Source: an uncultured Eubacteriales bacterium
GTDB taxonomy: Bacteria > Bacillota > Clostridia > Oscillospirales > CAG-272
Direction: 5' to 3'
Length of the DNA stretch: 64,000 bases
Assembly: GCA_958352145.1 (NCBI GenBank)
Contig: CATWNM010000005.1
Coordinates: 11,434 to 75,433 of the forward strand
Part shown: piece by piece, positions 20,663-32,992 of the stretch
How the letters are laid out: each line of letters begins with the position of its first letter
How positions within the stretch are numbered: position 1 is the first letter of the stretch
Position numbers and translations under genes: made by a program
Notes under the pieces: model-generated
What the model was told of the DNA's origin: nothing
Databases searched by the model: none
The model's input: only the letters and a program-made list of their open reading frames with translations

Positions 20663-21685
20663 TTGAATTTGAAAGAAATGCTGGAAAAAATCAAAGCTGA
20701 AGCGGCGGCAAAGCTGGAGGCGGCCAATGCCGACCTTGAAGCGATCCGTGTGCAGTATCTCGGGAAAAAGGGAGAACTGACTGGCGTGCTGCGCGGCATG
20801 GGGGCACTGAGCGCCGAAGAGCGTCCGAAGATCGGGCAGATGGCCAATGAAGTGCGCGCGTATATTGAGCAGCGTATTGAAGACCGGCGCGCGGCGCAGG
20901 AAGCTGAGGCACTGCAGCAGCGGCTCGACGGCGAGACGGTGGATGTGACCATGCCGGTCGAATCATTGGCGCGCGGTGCGCGGCATCCGCTTTCGATTGT
21001 GCAGACCGAACTTGAGGATATTTTTATCGGCCTTGGATTTGAGATCGCGGAGGGGCCGGAAGTCGAGTATGATTATTACAATTTCCAGGCGCTCAACATC
21101 CCGGAAAATCACCCCGCGCGGGATACGCAGGACACTTTTTATGTAACGGACAAGATTCTGCTTCGTTCGCAGACGTCTCCGGTGCAGGTGCGTACGATGG
21201 AGAAAAAGCGGCCCCCTATCCGCGTGATTTCGCCGGGGCGCGTATATCGTTCGGACGCTGTGGACGCCACGCATTCGCCGCTCTTTCATCAGCTTGAAGG
21301 GCTTGTCGTGGATAAAGGCATTACGATGGGGGATCTGAAGGGTACGCTGGAACTGTTTGCGAAAAAAATGTTCGGTGAAAATACGAAAATCCGGTTCCGT
21401 CCCCATCATTTCCCGTTCACCGAGCCCTCGGCCGAAGTGGACGTTTCTTGTTTTGTCTGCGGCGGAAAAGGGTGCGCGCTTTGCAAAGGGGAAGGCTGGA
21501 TCGAGATTCTCGGCGCGGGCATGGTGCATCCCAATGTGCTTCGGGGCTGTGATATCGACCCGGATGAATACAGCGGATTCGCTTTTGGCATGGGAATCGA
21601 GCGAATTGTTATGCGCAAATACAATATCAGTGATATGAGGCTGCTTTACGAGAACGATATTCGGTTTCTCAGGCAGTTTCGGTAA
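20663..21685 (+). CDS. pheS: Phenylalanine--tRNA ligase alpha subunit
   Basis: Class II aaRS motifs ([19 protein letters not shown]..., FGMGIERI). AGGAGG at 20653-20658. Start is TTG at 20663 or 20669. Confidence 0.97.
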
Positions 21686-21697
21686 GGAGGCGGACAG

Positions 21698-24085
21698 ATG
21701 AATCTTTCTAGAAAATGGCTTTCTGATTTTGTCGATGTCCGGGATATATCGAACAAAGACTACTGCGACCGCATGACGGCCACCGGTTCTAAAGTAGAAG
21801 GCGTTACGGTGCTTGGCGACGATATAGAGAATGTAGTCGTCGGCAGAATTCTGAAAATTTCAAAGCATGAAAATTCCGATCATTTGCAGATCTGCTCGGT
21901 CGATGCCGGTGAAGCGGTGCCCGTACAGATCGTGACCGGCGCACAAAATATTTTTGAAGGCGCCCTGATACCGGTGGCCAAAGCGAATTCGCGTTTGCCC
22001 GGCGGCGTTGTCATCAAGCCCGGCAAGCTGCGGGGGGTTGAGTCTAACGGCATGCTTTGTTCTATCGGCGAGCTTGGGCTGACGCTGCACGATATGCCCA
22101 AGGCCATTGAGGATGGCATCTGCATTTTGGACGAGTCTTTTCAGTCGATGATCGGACGCGATATCCGGGAAGCGCTGATGCTGTCGGACGACGTCGTGGA
22201 GTTTGAAATCACACCGAACCGTCCGGACTGCCTGTCAGTGATCGGTCTGGCCCGTGAGACGGCCGCATCTTTTGGCCGGCCGCTGCATGTTCCCGCTCCA
22301 AAGGTACAGGAGGCGGGCGGCAGCGTCAATGATTATTTGAAAGTAAAGATCGACGCGCCCGAACTTTGCCCGCGTTATACGGCTCGCGTCGTGCGGAATG
22401 TGAAAATTGCGCCTTCGCCGCTTTGGCTGCGCATGCGCCTGCGCGCTGCGGGCGTTCGTCCGATCAACAATATCGTGGACATCACCAATTATGTTATGCT
22501 CGAATACGGACAGCCCATGCACGCGTTCGACTATGCCTGCATAGACGGCAGCGCCATCACAGTGCGTCGTGCCGGAGAGGGAGAAGCGTTTCGTTCGCTG
22601 GACGGAAAAGACCATACGTTGGACGCGGGGATGCTCGTCATTGCGGATGATCGCAAGGCGGTCGCGCTGGCGGGCGTGATGGGCGGTGAAAATTCCGAGA
22701 TCACAGAAGGAACGAAAACGGTTGTATTTGAGTCGGCCTGCTTTAGCGGCCCGTCCATTCGCGTTACCTCCAGAAAGCTCGGCATGCGGACCGAGTCCTC
22801 CGGACGCTTTGAGAAAGGACTCGATCGGGAAAATACCTATCCTGCGCTGGAACGCGCCTGCGAGCTTGTGAATCTGCTCGGCGCGGGCGAGGTGGTCAGC
22901 GGTATTGTGGATGTGTATCCGGGCAAGAAGAAACGCACGGTTATTCAACTCGAACCGGAGCGGATCAATCGGTTTCTTGGCATCAGCGTCAGCGGAGCGT
23001 ATATGCGGCAGGTGCTGACCAACCTGTTTTTCAAGGTGGACGGCGACTGCGTTGAAGTTCCGTCTTTCCGCGAGGATGTAGCGTGTATGAACGATCTTGC
23101 GGAAGAAATCGTGCGGATTTACGGGTATAACGAGATTCGTTCTACCGGTATTTCCGGCAATATGACCCAGGGACAGCGCAATGCGCCGCAGCGCTTTGAA
23201 TATGGCCTGCATCAGGTACTTTGCGGCATGGGACTTTATGAAATTAATACATTTTCGTTTATTTCTCCGAAGTACTATGATAAAATCAATTTGCCTGTGG
23301 ACAGCAGTCTGCGGAATTCCGTTACGATTTCCAACCCGCTGGGTGAAGATACCAGCGTCATGCGAACGACGGCGCTGCCTTCTATGTTGGAGGTACTTGC
23401 GCGCAACGCCAATTTTTCCAATGAGAACGTCGGACTCTATGAAATGGCGACCGTCTATATCCCCACCGGAACGGATACGTTGCCGGATGAACGCAAAATT
23501 TTGACGCTTGGTTTTTATGGAAAAGGCGATTTTTACCGGCTCAAGTCCATGTGTGAGACCGTACTTGAGTATGCGCGTGTCCGTGCGGAATACGTGCGGC
23601 TGATCGACAATCCGTCCTATCATCCCGGACGCTGCGCGGAGATCCGTTTGGCGGATGGCGTTTGTCTTGGCGTTCTTGGCCAGATACATCCGGCAGTTGC
23701 GCAGAATTACGGCATGGATATGCCGGTATATGCGGCGGAAATCGACCTGCAGATTCTTTTTGAAAAGCGCGGAGAGGAGCCGGAATACCGTCCGCTGCCG
23801 AAATTCCCGGCATCTGCGCGTGATTTCTCCTTTGTGTGCGCTGAATCTTTGGAGATCGGCGCAATTGAGAAAGCAATTTGTTCGGGCGGCGTAAAGCTTT
23901 TGGAAAGTGTGCGTTTAGTCGACGTTTATCGCGGGCTGCAGATCGGAGAGGGCAAAAAGAGCGTGACTTTCCGTATTACGCTGCGCGCTGCTGATCATAC
24001 GCTTACGGTTGAGGAAGCGGATAAAGCGGCAAAGAAAATCCTTGGCGCGCTTGAACGCTCGCTTGGAATCACTATACGTCAGTAA
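21698..24085 (+). CDS. pheT: Phenylalanine--tRNA ligase beta subunit
   Basis: MNLSRKWLSDFVD..., tRNA-binding domain, B3/4, B5 and a C-terminal FDX-ACB-like domain. Confidence 0.97.
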   Translation: MNLSRKWLSDFVDVRDISNKDYCDRMTATGSKVEGVTVLGDDIENVVVGRILKISKHENSDHLQICSVDAGEAVPVQIVTGAQNIFEGALIPVAKANSRLPGGVVIKPGKLRGVESNGMLCSIGELGLTLHDMPKAIEDGICILDESFQSMIGRDIREALMLSDDVVEFEITPNRPDCLSVIGLARETAASFGRPLHVPAPKVQEAGGSVNDYLKVKIDAPELCPRYTARVVRNVKIAPSPLWLRMRLRAAGVRPINNIVDITNYVMLEYGQPMHAFDYACIDGSAITVRRAGEGEAFRSLDGKDHTLDAGMLVIADDRKAVALAGVMGGENSEITEGTKTVVFESACFSGPSIRVTSRKLGMRTESSGRFEKGLDRENTYPALERACELVNLLGAGEVVSGIVDVYPGKKKRTVIQLEPERINRFLGISVSGAYMRQVLTNLFFKVDGDCVEVPSFREDVACMNDLAEEIVRIYGYNEIRSTGISGNMTQGQRNAPQRFEYGLHQVLCGMGLYEINTFSFISPKYYDKINLPVDSSLRNSVTISNPLGEDTSVMRTTALPSMLEVLARNANFSNENVGLYEMATVYIPTGTDTLPDERKILTLGFYGKGDFYRLKSMCETVLEYARVRAEYVRLIDNPSYHPGRCAEIRLADGVCLGVLGQIHPAVAQNYGMDMPVYAAEIDLQILFEKRGEEPEYRPLPKFPASARDFSFVCAESLEIGAIEKAICSGGVKLLESVRLVDVYRGLQIGEGKKSVTFRITLRAADHTLTVEEADKAAKKILGALERSLGITIRQ

Positions 24086-24090
24086 TCAAG

Positions 24091-24134
24091 CAAAGCAAAG
24101 GCAGGACGGCGATTGCCGTCCTGCCTTTGCTTTG
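24091..24134 (+). terminator. pheST terminator
   Basis: 20-bp perfect stem CAAAGCAAAGGCAGGACGGC / GCCGTCCTGCCTTTGCTTTG with loop GATT. Confidence 0.8.
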
Positions 24135-24355
24135 CTCTGCAAGCGGTTCTATATTCGGATTTAGTATTGTTTTTTTGTGATGAAAGATCGCTGAATGCGG
24201 AACTCATAATGAATTGCTCCAGAAAAAAGGACAATACTTTGAATTTTGGAATACACAACTAAGCCTATACAACCAGTGATACGCTGCGTTGCTTTAATAT
24301 AATTTACAACCAAGAAATTGAGAAAAAGCACAAAATTCGCATTTTGCTGAGCGCT

Positions 24356-24898
24356 TTAATCTCCGGATGCCTGGTTTTTTTCTTCCTCATCGGGAACCCA
24401 TGCCCGGCTAAAGCCGATGTCCTTGAAAAGCGCTGCGAGTCCGGTGATCTGCTTTAGCCGCAGAATTTCGTCCTTGTCCATGCCCAGATGTTTTGAAATC
24501 CATGCGTCGCTTCTGCCCAGTTCGTGCAGTTCTTTGACAATATTGCTCATGAGTTCGACGTCGTGCGAGCCGCGGGCACGGTTGTGGCGTATGGTGCTGG
24601 CCATACGCTGATCCATCGGCTTGTCGATCACCGAAACGGGGAGCAGTCCGCGTTCGCGCTGATAGATGTCGTCGTGTTCCAGCATGACCCGGTACCGGTG
24701 AAAGCCGTCCACAATGACGTAGATGTCTTCTTTTGAACTGTAATAGCACACGATTGGCATCGTATATCCGTCACTTTTTATGCTGTCGTATAGGAGCTTC
24801 ATTTCCGGCGGGGCGACCGCGTTCGGATTGTATGTATTTGGAACGATTTTTTCGATGGGCACGGCCCGTACTGCATAAACAGGGCTGCGGTATTCCAT
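24356..24898 (-). CDS. ParB/Sulfiredoxin-domain protein, IbrB-like (DndB-analogous)
   Basis: ParB-box-like IVPNTYNPN ... VIVDGFHRYRV ... IRHNRARGSH. The ATG at 24898 directly abuts the stop (24899-24901) of the upstream gene. Confidence 0.75.
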   Translation of the reverse strand: MEYRSPVYAVRAVPIEKIVPNTYNPNAVAPPEMKLLYDSIKSDGYTMPIVCYYSSKEDIYVIVDGFHRYRVMLEHDDIYQRERGLLPVSVIDKPMDQRMASTIRHNRARGSHDVELMSNIVKELHELGRSDAWISKHLGMDKDEILRLKQITGLAALFKDIGFSRAWVPDEEEKNQASGD

Positions 24899-26260
24899 TT
24901 ACAGATCCTCCAGGCTTTTGTATTTTTGTTTGATGCGTGCAATCCTTTCCCGCTGCTTCTTGCTTTCTCCAAATCCCATCGTTTTGCAGTTATGGTCATT
25001 TTTCAGAATGCAAAGACACATGCGTTTCCAACTGGGAATATCTTTTGTGGTAAAAATATCGTCTGTATCGTCGGGGATTTTGCCGACGAATATAATCCGC
25101 GACTTCTTATCCAGTGTGTAATTGGATACGCCGTTGCGCCTGATGTTATATCCTTTTGCTGTCAGTTCCGCGATGGTATCTTCGGAAAGGCCGCCGCCGG
25201 TCTCGCGCCAGAATTGAATGGAAGCTCGGAATTTTTCGGCGTAGCGCATGCCAAGTCGTTTTGGAAGCGTTTTTAAAAGGAACTCGGTGTAGGACTGCCA
25301 GGTATGGCCCTCCGGCAAACGAATGCTTCTGTATCCTACTGCGGACGTTCGCCCATATATGGCGGCGAAGTTTGCGCCCTGTACACGCCCAAGCAGCCGC
25401 ACCCAGGTTTGCGGTTCCAGCACACGGTATAAGTTCAGACTTTCCCGTGCATAATCGTTGAACGGAGAGGCTACGCGCATTTGGTCGGGGGTCAGGCCGG
25501 CTTTGTAGTACAGGTCGTACAGCGGATTATATGCATATCCAAATTTGCAGTTTGCCGCCCATACGTCCGAAATCGTCCAGTCGTATAGCGGCGAGGCGCA
25601 CCAGACATCTTTAAAGGTTTTTGAAATCCAGCAGCAGCCTTTGTATCCGTATTTTTTATTCACAATGCTGTTGTACCGCTGCAAAGATTCTGTGGCGCGC
25701 GTACCGAGCAGGCAGATCGTTTTTCCACCGCCGTGGATTTCCCGGTACCAGCGGCCAAATTGCTTGGCCAGATTTTCCTGATGCATTTTATATTTATAAT
25801 AGTAAAACGGATTGTTTTGCAGCCGAAGCACATAGGGCTTGTTCGGAATTTCGCGTATCCAAAGCGCTTCTTTTTGGTCGTCCCAGGGGTACCAGTACAT
25901 TTCATAGCTGCCCAGCGCAGTGCGTGTCGCCATCGGCAGGCATACCCAATAAGGCTCGACCATATCGAGATGTTTTTCAAAGGTTTCCTCGACATACTTC
26001 GTTGTCATGGAGTACTGCGCTTCAAAGTCCTGATGAAAGAGGCCGATTTTGCGGGCGATGTGCCTTTGCTTGATGTAGTCTAAAACCAGATTCAGCAACA
26101 GTCCGCTGTCCTTGCCGCCGCTGAACGATACATAGATGTTCTCAAATTCGCTGAAAATAAAATTGAGCCTGCCTTGCAGGGCTTCATACACGTCGCATTC
26201 CAGGTATCGTTTGATCATTTTGTAAGTCCGCGGGTTGGTTGATATCGCTTTGAAATGCAT
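24899..26260 (-). CDS. PP-loop ATP-pyrophosphatase / PAPS-reductase-like protein with a long C-terminal extension, IbrA-like (DndC-analogous)
   Basis: PP-loop SFSGGKDSG near the N-terminus. About 450 aa. The C-terminal half resembles the DUF3440-type extension of IbrA homologues as recalled from memory; not searched. Confidence 0.75.
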   Translation of the reverse strand: MHFKAISTNPRTYKMIKRYLECDVYEALQGRLNFIFSEFENIYVSFSGGKDSGLLLNLVLDYIKQRHIARKIGLFHQDFEAQYSMTTKYVEETFEKHLDMVEPYWVCLPMATRTALGSYEMYWYPWDDQKEALWIREIPNKPYVLRLQNNPFYYYKYKMHQENLAKQFGRWYREIHGGGKTICLLGTRATESLQRYNSIVNKKYGYKGCCWISKTFKDVWCASPLYDWTISDVWAANCKFGYAYNPLYDLYYKAGLTPDQMRVASPFNDYARESLNLYRVLEPQTWVRLLGRVQGANFAAIYGRTSAVGYRSIRLPEGHTWQSYTEFLLKTLPKRLGMRYAEKFRASIQFWRETGGGLSEDTIAELTAKGYNIRRNGVSNYTLDKKSRIIFVGKIPDDTDDIFTTKDIPSWKRMCLCILKNDHNCKTMGFGESKKQRERIARIKQKYKSLEDL

Positions 26261-26351
26261 GTTTTATCTGCGCGTAGGGCATATGGAGCGATATTCTGCA
26301 TATTGAGGCGTGCAGCACCGACCCGATTATCCTTGTACTGTTACTTTTTTT

Positions 26352-26380
26352 ATTATATAGCAAGATATGGGGCGTTTCAA
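26352..26380 (-). promoter_or_regulatory. Candidate sigma-A promoter for the ibrA/ibrB-like pair
   Basis: Minus strand: TTGAAA (26380-26375), 17-bp spacer, TATAAT (26357-26352). Confidence 0.5.
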
Positions 26381-26412
26381 GGAAAATTTACATAAACATG
26401 TAAATTTTTCCA
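26381..26412. promoter_or_regulatory. Palindromic candidate operator abutting the -35 of the ibrA-like promoter
   Basis: AAATTTACAT-AAAC-ATGTAAATTT (26384-26407): perfect 10-bp arms with a 4-bp spacer. Confidence 0.45.
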
Positions 26413-26485
26413 ATTGCATACAACGTTCGGCTCTATTTTAATTGTATTTTCAAGTCAATAAAAATTAGAAAATCCGCCTGCGTGG

Positions 26486-26889
26486 TTGTGCCGCGTAGGG
26501 GGATTTATTGAAATGGAAGATGTACGCTATGGCATAAGATCGCACGCTTATTATGCAAAAGCAGTTGTTTGGGGACAGCAGAACGGAATAATCAAAGGCT
26601 ATTCCGAAACAGAATTTGTACCCGACCAAAGCATCACAAGAGAACAGATTGCGGCGATTATGTACCGCTACGCTAAGTAAAAAGATGTTGCTCCGACAGA
26701 TAATTGGGCAATTAAACTTGATTACACTGACTTTGCGGATATTTCCGATTATGCAGTGGAATCAGTTATGTACTGCAAGTTGAAAGGCATTATGCAGGGC
26801 AAGGATAATAAGAACTTTGCACCGCAGGATAATGCTACAAGAGCCGAAACGGCGGCAATACTTCAAAAATTTATTGAAGCTGACAAGTA
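26486..26889 (+). pseudogene. Remnant of the C-terminus of an SLH-domain cell-surface protein. It has no N-terminal part and carries an in-frame stop.
   Basis: Two SLH-like modules (...GIIKGYSETEFVPDQSITREQIAAIMYRY and FADISDYAVESVMYCKLKGIMQGKDNKNFAPQDNATRAETAAIL) are separated by TAA at 26678-26680. There is no signal peptide or plausible start. Confidence 0.7.
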
Positions 26890-26905
26890 GATAGCATAAT
26901 AACTT

Positions 26906-26942
26906 TCAAGGGCATACCGCTTTTTGTTGGCGGTATGCCCTT
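26906..26942 (+). terminator. Hairpin terminator after the SLH remnant
   Basis: CAAGGGCATACCGC / GCGGTATGCCCTTG stem. Confidence 0.65.
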
Positions 26943-27022
26943 GAACTATATTTACAGGAATTTTCATTCAAGGTGTATTTGTGGTTATAATAAATATAAA
27001 GACCTTGAAAGGAAGTTTAACT

Positions 27023-27862
27023 TTGAAAATTATTACTAATGAAATCATAAATCGATTTAAACTATATCTGTACGAGGACGAAAAGAGTGACAGCACCATA
27101 GAGAAATATATGCGTGATATTCGTTTCTTCCGTGAGTGGCTCGGCGGTAAAGGAGTTGACAAATCCGTAGTGGTTGAATATAAAAAGGAACTTTGTGAAA
27201 AGTACGCACCAAAGAGTGTAAATTCGATTTTATCATCGCTAAATGCTTTATTTATATATATGAATTGGTATGATTTGAAAGTAAAAACTCTAAAAATACA
27301 ACGCCGGATATTTGCCGATAAAGAAAAAGAACTGTCAAAAGCCGAATATGAAAGGCTATTGACAGCAGCTAAAAACAAAAAGAATGAAAGATTATATTAT
27401 CTTATGCAGACTATAGGCAGTACGGGCTTGAGAATTTCGGAATTAAAATATGTAACTTGTGAAGCCGTAAACGCAGGGCAAGCTGTTATAAACTGTAAAG
27501 GCAAGATACGGCAAGTGTTTCTGCCAAAACAACTATGTAAAATGTTGAAAGCTTATATCAAGCAACAAAATATAGAAAGTGGTTCGGTGTTCATAACAAG
27601 AAGCGGCAAACCTCTTGACCGCAGCACTGTATGGAAGATGTTGAAAAACTTATGCGAAAGGGCCAATGTTGCAAAGAGCAAAGTATTTCCCCATAATTTT
27701 CGTCATCTTTTCGCAAAAACATTTTACTCTCTGAAAAAGGATATCGTAAGACTTGCCGACATCTTGGGACATTCCAGCATCGAAACTACAAGGGTTTATA
27801 CTATCGAAAGCGGAGAAATCCATAAAATGCAACTGCAAAAGCTCGGTTTACTGCGGTGTTAG
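27023..27862 (+). CDS. Tyrosine-type site-specific recombinase (XerC/D-phage integrase family)
   Basis: Core-binding N-domain, R (GLRISEL), HxxR (HNFRHLFA) and the catalytic Tyr region LGHSSIETTRVYT. AAGGAAG lies upstream of the TTG at 27023; an alternative start is 26981. GC content is markedly lower than the surroundings. Confidence 0.9.
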   Translation: MKIITNEIINRFKLYLYEDEKSDSTIEKYMRDIRFFREWLGGKGVDKSVVVEYKKELCEKYAPKSVNSILSSLNALFIYMNWYDLKVKTLKIQRRIFADKEKELSKAEYERLLTAAKNKKNERLYYLMQTIGSTGLRISELKYVTCEAVNAGQAVINCKGKIRQVFLPKQLCKMLKAYIKQQNIESGSVFITRSGKPLDRSTVWKMLKNLCERANVAKSKVFPHNFRHLFAKTFYSLKKDIVRLADILGHSSIETTRVYTIESGEIHKMQLQKLGLLRC

Positions 27863-27972
27863 AAAAAATTTTGAAATAATTTTACGAATCCCCGTGACAA
27901 ATATTGTATGAAAGCGGGAATATACTACGGCAGATCATTCAGAAATTGGGGCTTTGCATGAGAATATAAAAA

Positions 27973-27996
27973 ACAACATAATTTGCATTATGTTGT
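27973..27996. repeat. Left lox-like site (IR-L): ACAACATAAT-TTGC-ATTATGTTGT
   Basis: Perfect 10-bp palindromic arms around an asymmetric 4-bp core. It is the exact reverse complement of 28202-28225. Confidence 0.9.
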
Positions 27997-28031
27997 TAAT
28001 GCTAAACTGGCTCTTACATAACTATTCCAAT

Positions 28032-28059
28032 TTTATACTATTCAACTCCGATTTGTCAA
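28032..28059 (-). promoter_or_regulatory. Strong sigma-A-like promoter inside the invertible segment, currently pointing leftward (away from the surface protein gene)
   Basis: Minus strand: TTGACA (28059-28054), 16-bp spacer, TATAAA (28037-28032). Confidence 0.55.
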
Positions 28060-28084
28060 CGGGTACTTGAATTTTCATCATTAT

Positions 28085-28143
28085 AGACATAAAAACCGGA
28101 CCAATGAGAACAACGGTTGTTCATTGGTCTGGTTTTTATGTCT
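28085..28143 (+). terminator. Long imperfect hairpin inside the invertible segment; likely terminator for recombinase read-through
   Basis: AGACATAAAAACCGGACCAATGAGAACAAC / GTTGTTCATTGGTCTGGTTTTTATGTCT followed by TTATT. Confidence 0.5.
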
Positions 28144-28201
28144 TTATTCCTAAAATACTTACATTTTCTGCGGTCAATATTCAGAATTTCTTTTGGGAAG
28201 T

Positions 28202-28225
28202 ACAACATAATGCAAATTATGTTGT
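28202..28225. repeat. Right lox-like site (IR-R): ACAACATAAT-GCAA-ATTATGTTGT
   Basis: 24/24 match to the reverse complement of IR-L; the core is inverted (GCAA versus TTGC). Confidence 0.9.
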
Positions 28226-28373
28226 GAGAAAGGGGTGCAGAAAATGAAAGATTGGTTTGAGCCGTATGAGATGCGGCTCTATTTCAGATTTAAATTCAAC
28301 AAAGTCTAACCAGTACAAACGTATCTTTGGCGGACAATTTTAGCCTGTTGACATTTTTAGGAGGTCATTTAAA

Positions 28374-28556
28374 ATGCATAAATTCATAAAGACGATAGCC
28401 GCGCTGCTGTCTTTAATAACGCTTGCGTCCGTTTTGCCGTTTTATATTTTTGCCGCTTCGAATAGTACGGTCGTTTTGCATCCGTCTATCGCGACGCCTA
28501 CGGGCGTTTTAGTAGAAGTGGGCGGCAAGATCAATGGATATACGATTACAAAATAA
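28374..28556 (+). CDS. N-terminal fragment (signal peptide region) of the SLH surface protein, separated from the body by a frameshift
   Basis: AGGAGG lies 8 nt upstream of the ATG. Signal peptide MHKFIKTIAALLSLITLASVLPFYIFA. Stop at 28554-28556, immediately after an A4 run. Confidence 0.65.
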   Translation: MHKFIKTIAALLSLITLASVLPFYIFAASNSTVVLHPSIATPTGVLVEVGGKINGYTITK

Positions 28557-28579
28557 GCGGCTATGACATTACGGTCGAT

Positions 28580-30910
28580 TTGGGAAAGTATAATGTCAAT
28601 AACAATTCCTTTCGATTGCCCTATGCAAACACTTTGTGGAGCGGCGTCGGCAGCGTAGAGTATATCAGTTGGGCGGGAAGCGGTTCGAATAAAAGAAGCG
28701 AGGGCGCGTCCGCGCTTTTGGCAAATGGAAAAAACACCGCGTATTATTATTTTAAAGCGGATCCTACGTATACATATACTTTGAATTATAATGCGAACGG
28801 CGGCAGCGGCGCTCCGGCTGATCAATCTGTAAGTACTGCGGACAGCAGCGGTGTATTTACCATCAGCAGCGAGAAGCCGTCAAGACAGGACTATGCGTTT
28901 TTGGGCTGGAGCACCGATAAAAATGCAGATTTGCCGGAGTATGTGTCCGGCGAGGCTATCCGTATTGGCCATGATCTCACAATTTATGCTGTTTGGCAGA
29001 AAATAACGCCTGAAACAAAGACAATTACCTTGACTTACCATGATAATTTCGGTGACAGCGATCACACGGCTACCGAAAGTAAAATAAGTACGCTGAACGA
29101 ATCAAAATGGTCTCCTGTTATTTTTTCTTTGATGGATTATACGGAGATCGACAGTTTTTCCATACCAAGAGACCGGCGCTTTATCGGCTGGAGTGAAACG
29201 AGAGATGGCGTAATTATCAGCGATTCGCTTTATGCTGTTTCAGAAGATTCGGATGTATACGCCATTTGGGAGGATGTGGAAACTTACACCGTGACGTATA
29301 CGGACGGCACAGGCGGGGAAGAGGTTTTTGCGGATCAGATCACGAGGGAACTGCTTGCAGGCGATGAAACGCCCAAATTTGACGGAACACCGGTACGAAA
29401 AGGATATGTGTTTGCCGGATGGACGCCCGAAGTTGCCGAAAAGGTGACCGGCACGGCGGTGTATACCGCACAGTGGAAAGAAGACCGAAACGGGAACGGT
29501 CAAGCGGACGATGAGGAAGAAACTTACACCGTGACGTATACGGACGGCACAGGCGGGGAAGAGGTTTTTGCGGATCAGATCGCGAAAGGGCTGCTTGCAG
29601 GAGATGAAACACCCAAATTTGCTGGAACACCAAACCGCGACGGGTATGAATTCAAGGGATGGACGCCGGCGATAGCGGAAACGGTAACAGAGGACGCAAC
29701 GTATACGGCGGTTTGGGAAGCCGAAGAGAAAGAATACCGGAAAAAGATCGTATTTAAAGTAGTAAACGGAACATGGGACGGTTATGACAGCGCGGACAAG
29801 GTGCTCTGGCTGACTTTAAAGGATGGAGACGGGAATAACAGTGAGGACGGTACGGCGGCAGCGGAGATTCCGACCGGAATGCAGGCAAACAGCGGATATA
29901 AAGGCGGCCGCTGGGATCCGGCGCCGGAAAATCCGATTTCAGCGTCGTCGCCTGAAGAATACACGTATAGTTTCAGCAAAAAAACAGGCGGCGGCAGCAG
30001 CACGCTGAAATATACGCTTACGTTTGAAACAAACGGCGGATCAAAAATCAGCAGTATAACGAAATCAAAAAACGCGGTTGTAGAATTGGATGCATATGAA
30101 CCGGTCAAAGCGGAGAACGTGTTTGAGGGCTGGTATGCGGATAAAGCGCTGACAGAAGCCGTGACAAGCGTGCGGATCACGGGGCATATGACCGTATACG
30201 CCAAGTGGTCCGAAATAAACAAAAGACAACCGTCATTACTGACGGATGCGCATGACGCATATATCGTCGGGCGGCAGGACGGTTTGGTTTATCCGGAGGC
30301 CAATATAACAAGAGCGGAAGTCGCGACGATCTTTTTCCGCCTGCTTACCGATGAGGCGCGGAAAGAGAATTATACAAAAGATAACGCATTTCGCGATGTA
30401 GTTACCGGCGATTGGTATAATACGGCCATTTCGACACTTGCCAAACTAAATATTCTCAAGGGCCGGGGTGAAGACCGGTTTGATCCGGATGCGTATATCA
30501 GCAGAGCGGAGTTTGCGGTAATTGCGGCGCGGTTCAGTGATGCGGCGTATGCGGGTGAAGATATATTTGGCGATATAGCCGGGCACTGGGCAGAGGAAGA
30601 GATTAACAGCGCGGCAGAGTTGGGCTGGGTGATCGGAGACAACGGGCTTTTCCGGCCGAATGATTGTATAACGAGAGCGGAAGCGATGGCGCTTGTCAAC
30701 CGAGTGCTCTGCCGGCAGCCGGAAACGGCGGCGGATATTTTAAGGGAAGATATGGTATGCTGGCCGGATAATTCGGATGAGAATGCCTGGTATTATCTGA
30801 TCGTACAGGAGGCTACCAACAGTCATAGCTATGAGATGAAGTCCGACGGCCGGCATGAAAAGTGGGCGCAGTTGAAATCGCCTAGAAACTGGACTGTGCT
30901 GGAAAAATAA
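28580..30910 (+). CDS. Large cell-surface protein body: Listeria-Bacteroides (Flg_new-type) repeats, 80-aa tandem repeats and three C-terminal SLH domains
   Basis: YTLNYNANGGSGAP...FLGWSTD...IYAVW and YTLTFETNGGSKI...FEGWYADKALT...VYAKW repeats. SLH modules ITRAEVATIFFRLL, ISRAEFAVIAARF and ITRAEAMALVNRVL. The frame is open from 28466 and overlaps the 28374 ORF. Confidence 0.85.
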   Translation: MGKYNVNNNSFRLPYANTLWSGVGSVEYISWAGSGSNKRSEGASALLANGKNTAYYYFKADPTYTYTLNYNANGGSGAPADQSVSTADSSGVFTISSEKPSRQDYAFLGWSTDKNADLPEYVSGEAIRIGHDLTIYAVWQKITPETKTITLTYHDNFGDSDHTATESKISTLNESKWSPVIFSLMDYTEIDSFSIPRDRRFIGWSETRDGVIISDSLYAVSEDSDVYAIWEDVETYTVTYTDGTGGEEVFADQITRELLAGDETPKFDGTPVRKGYVFAGWTPEVAEKVTGTAVYTAQWKEDRNGNGQADDEEETYTVTYTDGTGGEEVFADQIAKGLLAGDETPKFAGTPNRDGYEFKGWTPAIAETVTEDATYTAVWEAEEKEYRKKIVFKVVNGTWDGYDSADKVLWLTLKDGDGNNSEDGTAAAEIPTGMQANSGYKGGRWDPAPENPISASSPEEYTYSFSKKTGGGSSTLKYTLTFETNGGSKISSITKSKNAVVELDAYEPVKAENVFEGWYADKALTEAVTSVRITGHMTVYAKWSEINKRQPSLLTDAHDAYIVGRQDGLVYPEANITRAEVATIFFRLLTDEARKENYTKDNAFRDVVTGDWYNTAISTLAKLNILKGRGEDRFDPDAYISRAEFAVIAARFSDAAYAGEDIFGDIAGHWAEEEINSAAELGWVIGDNGLFRPNDCITRAEAMALVNRVLCRQPETAADILREDMVCWPDNSDENAWYYLIVQEATNSHSYEMKSDGRHEKWAQLKSPRNWTVLEK
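29279..29581 (+). repeat. Intragenic direct repeat with a 240-bp period
   Basis: 63 bp at 29279-29341 are identical to 29519-29581. The following roughly 100 bp are similar, encoding ETYTVTYTDGTGGEEVFADQI... Confidence 0.9.
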
Positions 30911-30954
30911 TTATGCGGCAAAGCGCGGAACGTTTGTCCTGATTTTCCTTCGGC

Positions 30955-30995
30955 AAAAAAGCCTCCGATATGCGGCAGCGCCGCATATCGGAGGC
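30955..30995 (-). terminator. Hairpin with its T-run on the minus strand
   Basis: GCCTCCGATATGCGGC / GCCGCATATCGGAGGC, preceded by A6 on the plus strand. Confidence 0.55.
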
Positions 30996-31073
30996 AGAGC
31001 CTGCCGGAAAGCCGTTGTTTGTTCGACGGAAAAGCTTGTGATGCGCCCGCCGCAGGAGCGGTGTCTGTAAGTT

Positions 31074-31124
31074 AAAATATGCACAAAGAGCAGTGCGCGC
31101 CCGCTCTTTGTGCATATTTTTATT
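31074..31124. terminator. Bidirectional terminator between the surface protein gene and the HTH-repeat gene
   Basis: AAAATATGCACAAAGAGC / GCTCTTTGTGCATATTTT with flanking A and T runs. Confidence 0.75.
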
Positions 31125-31186
31125 CTGCGCTCTGTTGCGTATATTTTTCGACAGGTTGTTTCGGCAGGGAGGTGTTGCGCTCCACT

Positions 31187-31891
31187 TTATCTTTCATAAT
31201 AAATATCTCTCTCGCAATGCGCTTCTCCGGTGATTGTTTTGCAGTGCAGATCCCCTGCGCAGTTTACATCTCCTCGAATATTCAAGCAGGTTACATCGCC
31301 GCCTGCGTCAAGGTCGCCTTCAATGTTTCCGCAGTTTACGTCGCCGCTTGTGTCAAGATTGCCCCCAATATTTCCGCAGTTTACGTCGCCGTTGGCGCTG
31401 AGTTTGGATCCGACGTTGCCGCAGTTTACATTGCCGTCGGCGCTGAGATTTCCACCGATGTTTTTGCAGTTTACAGCGTTGCCGGCGCGGATAGTTCCGG
31501 TAATGTCTCCGTTGATATCTGCGCAGCCCCAGATTTCTATCTGCAGCGTAAAACCTTCTGCGGCGTCGGCCGCCAGCGGAATATATTCTTTCGGGGTGCA
31601 ATTATCGCACCGCAAAAGCGTTCTGCCGCGGTATTGCAGCACGCGGAGCACGCCGTCGTCCGGAAGTTCGTCCCAGCCGTCCTTTGCCGACTCACGCCCG
31701 AGCAGAAAATCTACGGATGTATGAAACAAATCCGCGATACCCATGAGTTGCCGCACCTCCGGGTAGCAAAGATTGGTTTCCCATTTGCTGACTGCTTGTA
31801 CCGAGACGCCGCAGTTTTCAGCCAGTTGTTCCTGACTTAGGCCGGCACTTTTCCGTCTTTCGCGTAGTCTGTCGCCGAATGTTGTTGACAT
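31187..31891 (-). CDS. XRE-family HTH protein with a C-terminal Cys-containing 15-residue repeat domain (beta-helix/bactofilin-like, inferred)
   Basis: HTH_3-like LSQEQLAENCGVSVQAVSKWETN. About six repeats of (D/N)VNCGNIGGNLxxxG also give a nucleotide-level periodicity at 31250-31500. Confidence 0.8.
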   Translation of the reverse strand: MSTTFGDRLRERRKSAGLSQEQLAENCGVSVQAVSKWETNLCYPEVRQLMGIADLFHTSVDFLLGRESAKDGWDELPDDGVLRVLQYRGRTLLRCDNCTPKEYIPLAADAAEGFTLQIEIWGCADINGDITGTIRAGNAVNCKNIGGNLSADGNVNCGNVGSKLSANGDVNCGNIGGNLDTSGDVNCGNIEGDLDAGGDVTCLNIRGDVNCAGDLHCKTITGEAHCERDIYYER

Positions 31892-32131
31892 AAATTTCCC
31901 TCCGTGTTTTTTGTGTTCCGATCGGTTATTTACAGTATAGCATGGTTTTTACAGAATAACCAGCAACTTTTTGTAGAATTTTATAATTTTTTTCAACTTT
32001 AGGTTGAATTAATTGCCTCAGTTGATAAATACTTGCCGGTGTGCTATACTTTATACAAACGGTGCTGTAATTTGAGTCATATTGGTTTGATTTGGATCGA
32101 ACTGCGCGCGTTGGATAAGGAGGATTTTATT

Positions 32132-32992
32132 ATGGCAGCAAACAACTGTAAAAACAGAATTGTTCTTGCCGCTTTGACGGTTCTTGTATCCTTTTTCTCA
32201 GCCGGATGCTCGTTTGCCGGACAAAAAGAGCCGCAAGCAACGTTTCCGGAATCCCGTTTATATCAGGAGGGGCTTTATCTTCTGTGTGACAACGGCGCGC
32301 ATCTGATCGTAATCGACGATTCCGGACCGTGCGTGATGAGACCGGGGAATGATTTGGTTGCGTTTGACCATCTGACTGCCGGTGATCGCATTCGCGTAGA
32401 AATGGGCCCGGCCGATGAGTCGTACCCGATGCAGGCGACGGTGTATGGGATTGAAAAACTGAGCGACGGCGAATTTTTCGATATTGATGCGGACACGCTG
32501 GCGTCTCTTGCGGAGATGGGGTGGATCGAAGACTGGAAAAATTTTGATCCGGATGCGTTTGGTGCATATATTCCGAATGAAAGTGCGCAGGTTTTATTCT
32601 ACTATAAAATTCCTACGAGCCGGATTTACCTGTATTTTTGCTTGATACGGCAGCGAACGCCGGAGGGAAACTGCGATATGGAGGCGCCGGCGCGGGATTT
32701 TGCGGTATATTATACGGACGACGGCGGAGTATCCATTGGCAGGCTCTCGCTTAAATTGCCTAACGATCTTGCGTATGACTCCATACGTCCGATCTACGCC
32801 GGGCCGGGTGCGGGCAGCGGGGAATGCGAGTTTATTTTGGAAATGAAAAACGGCGGCGATACGTTTTATGTTTCATTTAATAATTTTTCGTACACGGGCG
32901 AAGCGGACTTTATGGAATTTAACTATGCCGGCGTTATGCCGGAAGAAACAGTAAACGAATACCGGCAATGGAATCCGGATCTGTTTCATTGA
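32132..32992 (+). CDS. Hypothetical lipoprotein
   Basis: AAGGAGG lies upstream of the ATG at 32132. Signal/lipobox VLVSFFSAGC. No recognisable family. Confidence 0.65.
   Translation: MAANNCKNRIVLAALTVLVSFFSAGCSFAGQKEPQATFPESRLYQEGLYLLCDNGAHLIVIDDSGPCVMRPGNDLVAFDHLTAGDRIRVEMGPADESYPMQATVYGIEKLSDGEFFDIDADTLASLAEMGWIEDWKNFDPDAFGAYIPNESAQVLFYYKIPTSRIYLYFCLIRQRTPEGNCDMEAPARDFAVYYTDDGGVSIGRLSLKLPNDLAYDSIRPIYAGPGAGSGECEFILEMKNGGDTFYVSFNNFSYTGEADFMEFNYAGVMPEETVNEYRQWNPDLFH

Follow-up and report, generated by a model that had tools for sequence, protein, structure and literature searches.

What is the function of a two-gene operon in which a large protein with a phosphoadenosine phosphosulfate (PAPS) reductase-like fold is encoded together with a small ParB-like protein? 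The question was raised by a 64,000-nucleotide stretch of DNA from an uncultured Eubacteriales bacterium (contig CATWNM010000005.1, positions 11,434 to 75,433), referred to here as the window, where such a pair, named ibrA and ibrB below after its relatives, lies on the minus strand beside the pheS and pheT genes. Judged by its homologues, the pair is a further chromosomal member of the known and named IbrAB/YbdNM family. It is not a sulfur-metabolism gene, it is not a known defence system, and it is not tied to the neighbouring surface-protein locus. The reading favoured here, to which we give about an even chance, is that the pair forms an ATP-dependent, DNA-directed modification or remodelling module. 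The family is without a known activity despite being conserved above an essential tRNA synthetase subunit, and its large subunit is routinely labelled a PAPS reductase and, in viruses, counted among the genes of sulfur metabolism, against which the present evidence argues.

Full-length homology placed both proteins in the family. The large protein (IbrA) was 29% identical to E. coli YbdN over residues 6-436, that is, over its full length (E=3e-63), and the small protein (IbrB) was 52% identical to YbdM (E=4e-57). In E. coli K-12, the genes ybdN and ybdM (b0602/b0601) occur in the same order as in the window and with an overlapping junction. The window proteins were also about 32% (30-32%) and 48% identical, respectively, to plasmid IbrAB-like copies. 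The window pair and these relatives have in common a large protein with PAPS_reduct and DUF3440 domains, an IbrB-like (ParB-like) small subunit, a coupled A-then-B order, and an overlapping or abutting junction, and the IbrA/IbrB-type assignment proposed in an earlier note, which had been made from the sequence alone, was upheld by the homology together with the shared order and coupling. Several differences were observed as well. The window pair belongs to a Clostridia chromosomal clade, and it has a different promoter palindrome. While the LysR regulator CitR adjoins ybdNM (PMC9068703), no such gene adjoins the window pair, and no link to an eib-type gene is visible there.

The family spans about 1,900 clusters at 50% identity (1,899 at a threshold of E<=1e-3; 293 at E<=1e-30). 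Its members occur among the core y-genes of E. coli K-12, in 39% of the complete genomes of that species, on hundreds of plasmids, and in numerous gut and dairy phages. The figure of 39% refers to an IbrAB-like pair other than the core ybdNM genes, found with a plasmid copy as query in 2133/5426 complete genomes. For the mobile copies, 223 records were counted among phages and 725 among plasmids. The large gene was uniformly labelled PAPS reductase in E. coli and plasmid annotations; the names given to the E. coli IbrAB-like pair by the Prokaryotic Genome Annotation Pipeline, for example, were "phosphoadenosine phosphosulfate reductase" and "IbrB-like domain-containing protein". The window copy is an ordinary one: the same questions are easier to approach in E. 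coli or in dairy phages, and it offers no unique experimental access.

The pair forms a self-contained operon of two translationally coupled genes that has its own promoter (Table 1). The two open reading frames (ORFs) were confirmed on the minus strand at 24899-26260 and 24356-24898, and the motifs previously listed for them (SFSGGKDSG, VDGFHRYRV, and RHNRARGSH) were all found in the proteins. The junction reads CTG GAG GAT CTG TAA ATG GAA, such that the stop codon (24899-24901) directly abuts the start codon (24896-24898), as the earlier note had described, and the two genes are in the same frame. The coupling makes the complex of the two proteins that the note considered probable a plausible one. 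The 453 amino acids given there for the large protein correspond to its longest ORF but not to the length of the protein. Homologues are 439-443 amino acids long, the public gene call for a 100%-identical protein has 439, and conservation of IbrA begins at MIKRYLE both in the alignment of homologues and in the comparison with the closest other species in our sample (locus L086). These observations place the predicted true start of ibrA at Met15 (position 26218), for a protein of 439 amino acids encoded at 24899-26218. The 14 codons upstream (26219-26260) were poorly conserved relative to L086, with similarity resuming at ATGATYAARCGATACCTGG, and are most likely an untranslated leader rather than coding sequence. 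The window was 99.7% identical to contig CAYBYN010000009.1 of an uncultured Clostridia genome (assembly GCA_964313445.1).

In the large protein, the Pfam domains DUF3440 (E=3e-82, 275 bits against a cut-off of 25) and PAPS_reduct (E=1e-9, 38.9 bits against a cut-off of 22.5) were identified, and the match to phrog_2302 in PHROG (8e-98) was far beyond chance. Among 27 diverse IbrA members (30-78% identity), the PP-loop SFSGGKDS was nearly invariant, the motifs D64xE66, WxPW, GxRxxES, DW...DxW, and YNxLYD were conserved, and several residues inside DUF3440 were invariant. The only nearly invariant cysteine was C93. A search of the Protein Data Bank (PDB) with the IbrA sequence returned nothing significant. 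An AlphaFold2 model of the protein (mean predicted local distance difference test score, pLDDT, of 84) matched PAPS and adenosine phosphosulfate (APS) reductases (CysH), FAD synthase/FMN adenylyltransferase, CysD, TtuA, TilS, and LarE over residues ~1-250 (Foldseek E-values of 1e-6 to 1e-3), and on this model IbrA appears to be a PAPS-reductase-type adenine-nucleotide alpha-hydrolase. Although these families provide its best structural matches, IbrA scored far under the family cut-offs for CysH, TilS, TtuA, and LarE, carries DUF3440 in addition, and has no iron-sulfur (Fe-S) cysteines. It also has no conserved cysteine C-terminal to YNxLYD, the site of the catalytic cysteine of CysH, whose motif is ECGLH. 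Since the ATP-type PP-loop is intact, IbrA would be expected to catalyze adenylation (ATP to AMP and PPi) rather than PAPS reduction, and its motifs class it as a predicted enzyme of the ATP pyrophosphatase (adenylating) type.

The small protein was matched by the Pfam ParB_N model at E=2.6e-5 and 24.6 bits, just below the 26.3-bit cut-off, and it matched phrog_2159 in PHROG at 5e-81. When compared with the PDB, the IbrB family profile matched Noc (3e-6), ParB (7e-5), SbnI (0.014), and SerK (0.08) over residues 9-73 only, and an hhalign comparison of IbrB with Spo0J supported residues 9-102 only. The motifs NxYNPN, DG[F/Y]HR, LPV, RxAxTxRHNRARGxH, and GMDxDExxRxKQxxGLxxLF were invariant in chromosomal, phage, and plasmid copies, and the last of these, in our reading, resembles the helix-turn-helix (HTH) of ParB. 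By these features, IbrB is a putative minimal ParB/Srx-fold protein (DGFHR) with an HTH-like tail. It shares with the CTP-dependent clamps ParB, Noc, and KorB a homologous N-terminal domain that is followed by an HTH-like segment. Unlike the partition ParB, however, IbrB has only 180 amino acids and no C-terminal dimerisation domain, carries DGFHRYR in place of GERRxRA, and scored 19.1 bits with the parB_part model against a cut-off of 58.45. A ParABS partition protein was rejected as a candidate on account of the DGFHRYR box, the end of the protein just past the HTH-like segment, and the absence of a parA partner nearby.

The two genes were found to be linked across genomes. In a sample of 80 bacterial genomes of different species with an IbrA 65-92% identical to that of the window, which included Lachnospiraceae, Oscillospiraceae, Ruminococcus, Erysipelotrichaceae, Anaeroplasma, and C. 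difficile, an IbrB-like gene was located immediately downstream of IbrA in 78 of the 80 loci, and one of the two exceptions ends at a contig edge. The junction abuts or overlaps in 62 of these 78, with 11 nt as the commonest overlap. The linkage also held in phages, plasmids, and E. coli. Natural fusions of IbrA with IbrB were sought among longer family members and none was found, the extra regions being unrelated or chimeric. Both proteins were conserved as much as or more than an essential aminoacyl-tRNA synthetase subunit: relative to three Lachnospiraceae genomes, the identity was 77-80% for IbrB and 66-68% for IbrA, compared with 64% for PheS and 46% for PheT. The identity of IbrB to phage copies was 67-70% for Streptococcus and Lactobacillus phages and 60% for the mycobacteriophage Gaia.

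Beyond the partner gene, no other conserved chromosomal neighbour was found when all flanking proteins of the 80 loci were clustered. The next commonest flanking clusters were generic, namely ABC ATPases (18 loci), MATE proteins (10 loci), and chemotaxis receptors (nine loci), and no recombinase, SLH, or defence gene recurred beside the pair. In L086, where IbrA is 92% identical, the ibrA promoter region joins a homologue of the window gene 32033-32992 after 223 nt, and a 5.7 kb segment of the window (~26422-32139) is missing. This absence, together with the lack of conserved neighbours, therefore identifies the segment as an insertion beside the pair and not as its partner. The earlier note had located the pair next to the pheT terminator at the start of an accessory patch. 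Its adjacency to the terminator hairpin was retained, as the hairpin lies downstream of the pair, while its status as island cargo was not: these comparisons assign the pair to the genome backbone beside pheST, at the border of the insertion. A role for the pair as regulator of the neighbouring phase-variable surface locus, also raised earlier, had to be abandoned on the same grounds.

Phage copies provided further insights into possible partners. In a sample of 80 viral loci from IMG/VR (L091-L170), an IbrB-like gene was found within three gene positions of IbrA in at least 66 loci, of which 36 had it immediately downstream (assigned by BLASTP). An SNF2 helicase was encoded upstream on the same strand in 23 of the 80 loci and was directly adjacent in 20, and a 140-amino-acid protein adjoined IbrA or IbrB in 28 (for example, L144:6570-6989). 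The two partners were mutually exclusive, occurring together in none of the 80 loci. The 140-amino-acid family had the invariant residues W11, E12, W57, N71, G77, and A110 and the motif WE..G[MF]Y...NRxAWxGQAA, and it had no sequence match in Pfam, PHROG, or the PDB. The phage copies were located in early, replication, or moron regions, and YqaJ exonuclease and ResIII helicase neighbours recurred among the viral loci. For example, the pair follows an SNF2-type helicase in the Streptococcus phage Bsingle and the Lactobacillus phage AQ113, and it follows a PD-(D/E)XK protein in Gaia, where the ParB-like gene is fused to a cupin. The pair was also found in a virulent Moineauvirus of S. thermophilus and in the Faecalibacterium phage Taranis. 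On enterobacterial plasmids (L006, L007), the pair stood alone in unrelated contexts, either beside fae fimbrial genes or on a Klebsiella virulence plasmid between fecIRA and iroBCDN.

Variation in gene structure was also observed among the viral loci. In 12 of them (L104, L110, L112, L122-L126, L129, L130, L132, and L141), the last ~45 residues of DUF3440 were encoded in a separate nearby ORF of ~86 amino acids, with the motif PSY[KR]R.C..IL.ND. Several viral loci contained two tandem IbrB-like genes.

The double-stranded DNA (dsDNA) translocase of the SNF2 type as a partner, the ParB-like HTH subunit, and the place among replication genes together point to DNA as the substrate, for which the mutually exclusive phage partners represent a concrete lead. 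In the favoured reading, IbrB would bind nucleotide and DNA as the targeting subunit and would recruit or gate IbrA. As the catalytic subunit, IbrA would use ATP to adenylate a group on DNA, after which a nucleophile would displace AMP and leave a covalent mark. Phages would add the SNF2 translocase or the 140-amino-acid protein to this module. In cells, gene expression would be changed by the mark or the complex, in keeping with the activation of eib genes that has been reported, and in phages it would serve genome protection or takeover.

Such an arrangement would have its analogues in DndB/DndC and DpdB/DpdA, where a ParB-like NTPase accompanies a DNA-modifying enzyme (PMC12839542). With DndB/DndC, SspD, and BrxP, the pair has in common the combination of a DGxHR-type protein of the ParB/Srx superfamily with a PP-loop enzyme of the PAPS-reductase fold, and DNA-directed action is presumed. 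In DpdA/DpdB, a ParB-like NTPase assists the DNA-modifying enzyme (PMC12839542); IbrB would be such a helper here, but the catalytic partner is a PP-loop enzyme and not a TGT-family transglycosylase, and there are no dpd genes. Dnd-like sulfur insertion is argued against by the absence of an Fe-S or multi-cysteine signature from the IbrA sequences. A more specific proposal is that IbrA/IbrB are the writer of an undescribed covalent DNA mark, made by ATP-dependent adenylation, targeted by a minimal ParB-like nucleotide switch, and common to phages, plasmids, and cells. We consider this possible, although we lean against it. If it were true, phages would mark their own genomes with the SNF2 translocase or the 140-amino-acid partner, cells would use the mark as an epigenetic regulator, and many viral DUF3440 "CysH" genes regarded as sulfur auxiliary metabolic genes (AMGs) would have been mis-assigned.

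The known genetics fit an effect on transcription at the DNA level without proving it. IbrB enhances Eib expression, as related in PMC7649339 with reference to Sandt 2002; activation of Eib-type surface proteins is the trait by which the family was first defined genetically. The ybdNM genes are repressed by CitR, a repression that holds under laboratory conditions (PMC9068703). Deletion of ybdM in E. coli with ybdN intact changed fitness by only about 1-2%, and over-expression of YbdM cost about 10% of growth (PMC8764527).

Several observations weigh against a DNA-directed module. Neither the window nor any of the 80 bacterial loci contained homologues of the SNF2 and 140-amino-acid phage partners (also c5). 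In fold searches with DUF3440 alone (model pLDDT of 84), the best matches had E-values of 0.21 in the PDB and 0.29 in BFVD; the domain is without a significant structural relative that would support DNA binding by IbrA. Several winged-helix or HTH proteins were included among these non-significant matches (E>=0.2), which is a hint only. Furthermore, IbrA has the single nearly invariant C93 and no Fe-S-type cysteine set, which gives no indication of Dnd-like sulfur chemistry. Some proteins with the ParB/Srx fold are kinases of small molecules or of proteins (SerK, SbnI, and sulfiredoxin), and two of these, SbnI and SerK, were weakly matched by the IbrB profile. No biochemical activity or study was found for IbrAB/YbdNM members in the literature, where the term "IbrB" is swamped by unrelated acronyms. 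E. coli K-12 has ybdNM but is not known to contain an unexplained DNA modification. Its ybdNM operon is, however, the one kept repressed by CitR in the laboratory.

A purely regulatory role is the alternative that survives best, although we regard it as unlikely. The pair would act as a transcriptional co-activator or regulator, with IbrB as a site-specific HTH binder, IbrA as a ligand-sensing or accessory subunit, and the enzyme fold serving regulation only. Eib expression is the subject of the only genetics available (PMC7649339, citing Sandt 2002), YbdM is predicted by UniProt to be a transcription factor, as cited in the YbdO/CitR study (PMC9068703), the tail of IbrB resembles an HTH, and the promoter of the pair carries a conserved palindrome, which takes another form in other clades. 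The promoter proposed earlier (26352-26380) was upheld as a consensus match (11/12 positions) and was the best sigma-70-like site within 24000-27000. The palindrome described next to its -35 element was also present, but its size is 11-4-11 rather than 10-4-10, and a gap of 2 nt separates it from the -35. Its 8-4-8 core pattern had only one exact occurrence in the window. In L086, which is a species-level relative with 81% nucleotide identity, conservation covered the promoter, the core of the inverted repeat (TTTACA-N6-TGTAAA), and ~25 bases at the start of the transcript, and it did not extend to the remainder of the leader.

Across the 80 bacterial loci, no universal operator was found upstream of ibrA, and the window-type palindrome was present only in the closest relative. 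A different type, TTWCCA-N5-TGGWAA, occurred in about 9/78 loci, and since the HTH-like segment of IbrB is invariant while the palindromes differ between clades, IbrB would be a poor candidate for their binder. A merely regulatory role is further opposed by the PP-loop and catalytic-type residues of IbrA, invariant or nearly so in the 27 members, which argue for catalysis; by the retention of the pair in virulent dairy phages amid replication genes and beside the SNF2 helicase; and by the absence of a conserved target locus adjoining the pair. The TTWCCA-N5-TGGWAA palindromes were located 34-101 nt upstream of ibrA in nine Lachnospiraceae-type loci (L018, L019, L021, L030, L037, L038, L043, L050, and L054), that of L021 being placed between the -35 and -10 elements. 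A tenth regular-expression match, in L075 (TTGCCAAAATGGTTA, -152), has a shorter spacer and falls outside this consensus.

Action on a substrate other than DNA appears rather improbable. The substrate would be tRNA or rRNA, as for TilS, TtuA, and ThiI, or else a small molecule or protein, and IbrB, as a ParB/Srx-type kinase comparable to SerK, SbnI, or sulfiredoxin, would make or prime what IbrA acts on. PP-loop enzymes that modify tRNA are among the fold neighbours of IbrA, as is FMN adenylyltransferase, IbrB was matched by the NCBIfam SerK model at E=5e-4 in addition to its weak profile matches to SbnI and SerK, and the housekeeping-like conservation and chromosomal contexts would fit, as would the order queA-ibrA-ibrB in one lineage. 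However, the matches to tRNA enzymes were confined to the PP-loop core and far under the family cut-offs (for example, 17.1 bits against 93.6 for the TilS N-domain model, over residues 42-88 only), the queA linkage is that of a single lineage with three loci, and the association with SNF2 and the position within phage replication modules speak for dsDNA. IbrB also keeps a ParB-type HTH-like segment, for which a small-molecule kinase would have no need. As specific candidates, the tRNA-modifying PP-loop enzymes (TilS, TtuA/TtcA, ThiI, and MnmA) were rejected, because no family match extended past the PP-loop and the structural likeness is that of a common core. Profile searches thus left the large protein outside the characterised PAPS/APS reductase and tRNA-modification families.

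A role as a minimal defence module against phages or plasmids, either Dnd-like and modification-only or abortive, is very unlikely. The domain analogy to DndB/DndC and BrxP (PMC12839542), the frequency on plasmids, and the accessory distribution in E. coli would agree with such a role. In PADLOC, however, no system-level match was obtained: IbrB matched nothing, the DndC model gave a partial match of 27.9 bits, and BrxP matched with 13.6 bits over 24 residues. The NCBIfam DndC model TIGR03183 similarly reached 25.8 bits over residues 177-252 only, against a cut-off of 290.4 bits; overall, the DndC models scored 26-28 bits over about 80 residues, and no threshold for DndC, SspD, or BrxP was reached. 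Relative to Dnd, DUF3440 and the one conserved cysteine are features of IbrA, and IbrB matched no DndB model. The gene list of the surrounding +/-10 kb, with its Pfam domains, contained no dndA (cysteine desulfurase), dndD/E, or dndFGH, no SspABC or BREX partners (BrxC/PglZ/BrxL), and no effector or restriction partner, and the earlier view that the locus departs from the standard Dnd, Ssp, and BREX arrangements was thereby strengthened. Additionally, the 80 chromosomal loci lie amid housekeeping genes and not in defence islands, phages themselves carry the pair, virulent ones included, and sequence conservation this extreme is unusual for defence genes.

A toxin-antitoxin system, with IbrA as the toxin and the ParB-like IbrB as the antitoxin, is listed by TASmania for the Listeria genes lmo1309/lmo1310 through guilt by association (PMC7020466). 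The two-gene operon with coupled translation would be compatible with it, but we find it highly improbable, as both proteins are large, enzyme-like, and highly conserved, and the ybdM deletion with ybdN intact was viable with the small fitness effects given above (PMC8764527). Finally, an assimilatory PAPS/APS reductase ("CysH") or sulfur AMG is scarcely credible despite the widespread annotation and the treatment of viral "CysH" clades with DUF3440 as sulfur AMGs (bioRxiv 10.1101/2021.01.05.425418; PMC12323421), given that no CysH or APS-reductase NCBIfam model matched at E<=0.01, that the ATP-type PP-loop is intact and the CysH cysteine absent, and that the obligate partner is ParB-like rather than a set of cys genes.

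Table 1. Features of the ibrA-ibrB operon and its borders in the window (positions of the window; strand left empty where none applies).
Feature	Position	Strand	Description
ibrA/ybdN-like gene	24899..26218	minus	439 aa + stop; predicted N-terminal PAPS-reductase-fold PP-loop ATP pyrophosphatase (SFSGGKDS) and C-terminal DUF3440
ibrB/ybdM-like gene	24356..24898	minus	180 aa + stop; ParB/Srx-like N-terminal domain (NxYNPN, DGFHR), RHNRARGxH, HTH-like tail (GMDKDEILRLKQITGL)
Gene junction	24896..24911	minus	GGAGG Shine-Dalgarno of ibrB (24911-24907) within the last ibrA codons, TAA 24901-24899, ATG 24898-24896
Upstream in-frame extension, 14 codons	26219..26260	minus	not in homologues or public gene call
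Sigma-70-type promoter of the pair	26352..26380	minus	TTGAAA (26380-26375), 17 nt, TATAAT (26357-26352); 11/12 consensus positions
Perfect 11-4-11 palindrome	26383..26408		AAAATTTACAT-AAAC-ATGTAAATTTT; arms 26383-26393 and 26398-26408; candidate operator
Long perfect hairpin after pheT	~24088..24138		downstream boundary of the pair; outside the module

Of the remaining features, the leader RNA had no Rfam match and folded no better than shuffled controls (z=0.54). The sole Rfam-level matches in the region were spurious microRNA matches to the pheT hairpin, which separates the convergent pheST and ibrAB transcription units. In the window, pheS-pheT (20663-24085) adjoins the pair convergently, and in one Lachnospiraceae lineage (L048, L052, and L056) the order pheS-pheT-queA-ibrA-ibrB was found with all genes on the same strand. 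The adjacency to pheST in both may be a coincidence or a remnant of old synteny. As a functional clue, the queA/pheST linkage was dropped, given its occurrence in one lineage of three loci and, in another orientation, in the window.

The 5.7 kb segment looks like an inserted, recombinase-associated surface-protein cassette. It holds an ORF with an SLH fragment (26486-26680), a hairpin with a 17-bp stem (26905-26945), a tyrosine recombinase (26981-27862), a Flg_new/SLH surface protein on the plus strand (28374-30910), and an HTH_3 protein on the minus strand (31187-31891) with a C-terminal run of GNxNCGNxG-like repeats. The Flg_new/SLH gene is split into ORFs of 60 and 776 amino acids in the window, whereas it is a single gene of 926 amino acids in the 99.7%-identical public contig. 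Relative to that contig, the A run at about 28548-28552 of the window is A4 rather than A5, and one 243-nt repeat unit is missing, a difference that could be due to strain variation, phase variation, or an assembly error.

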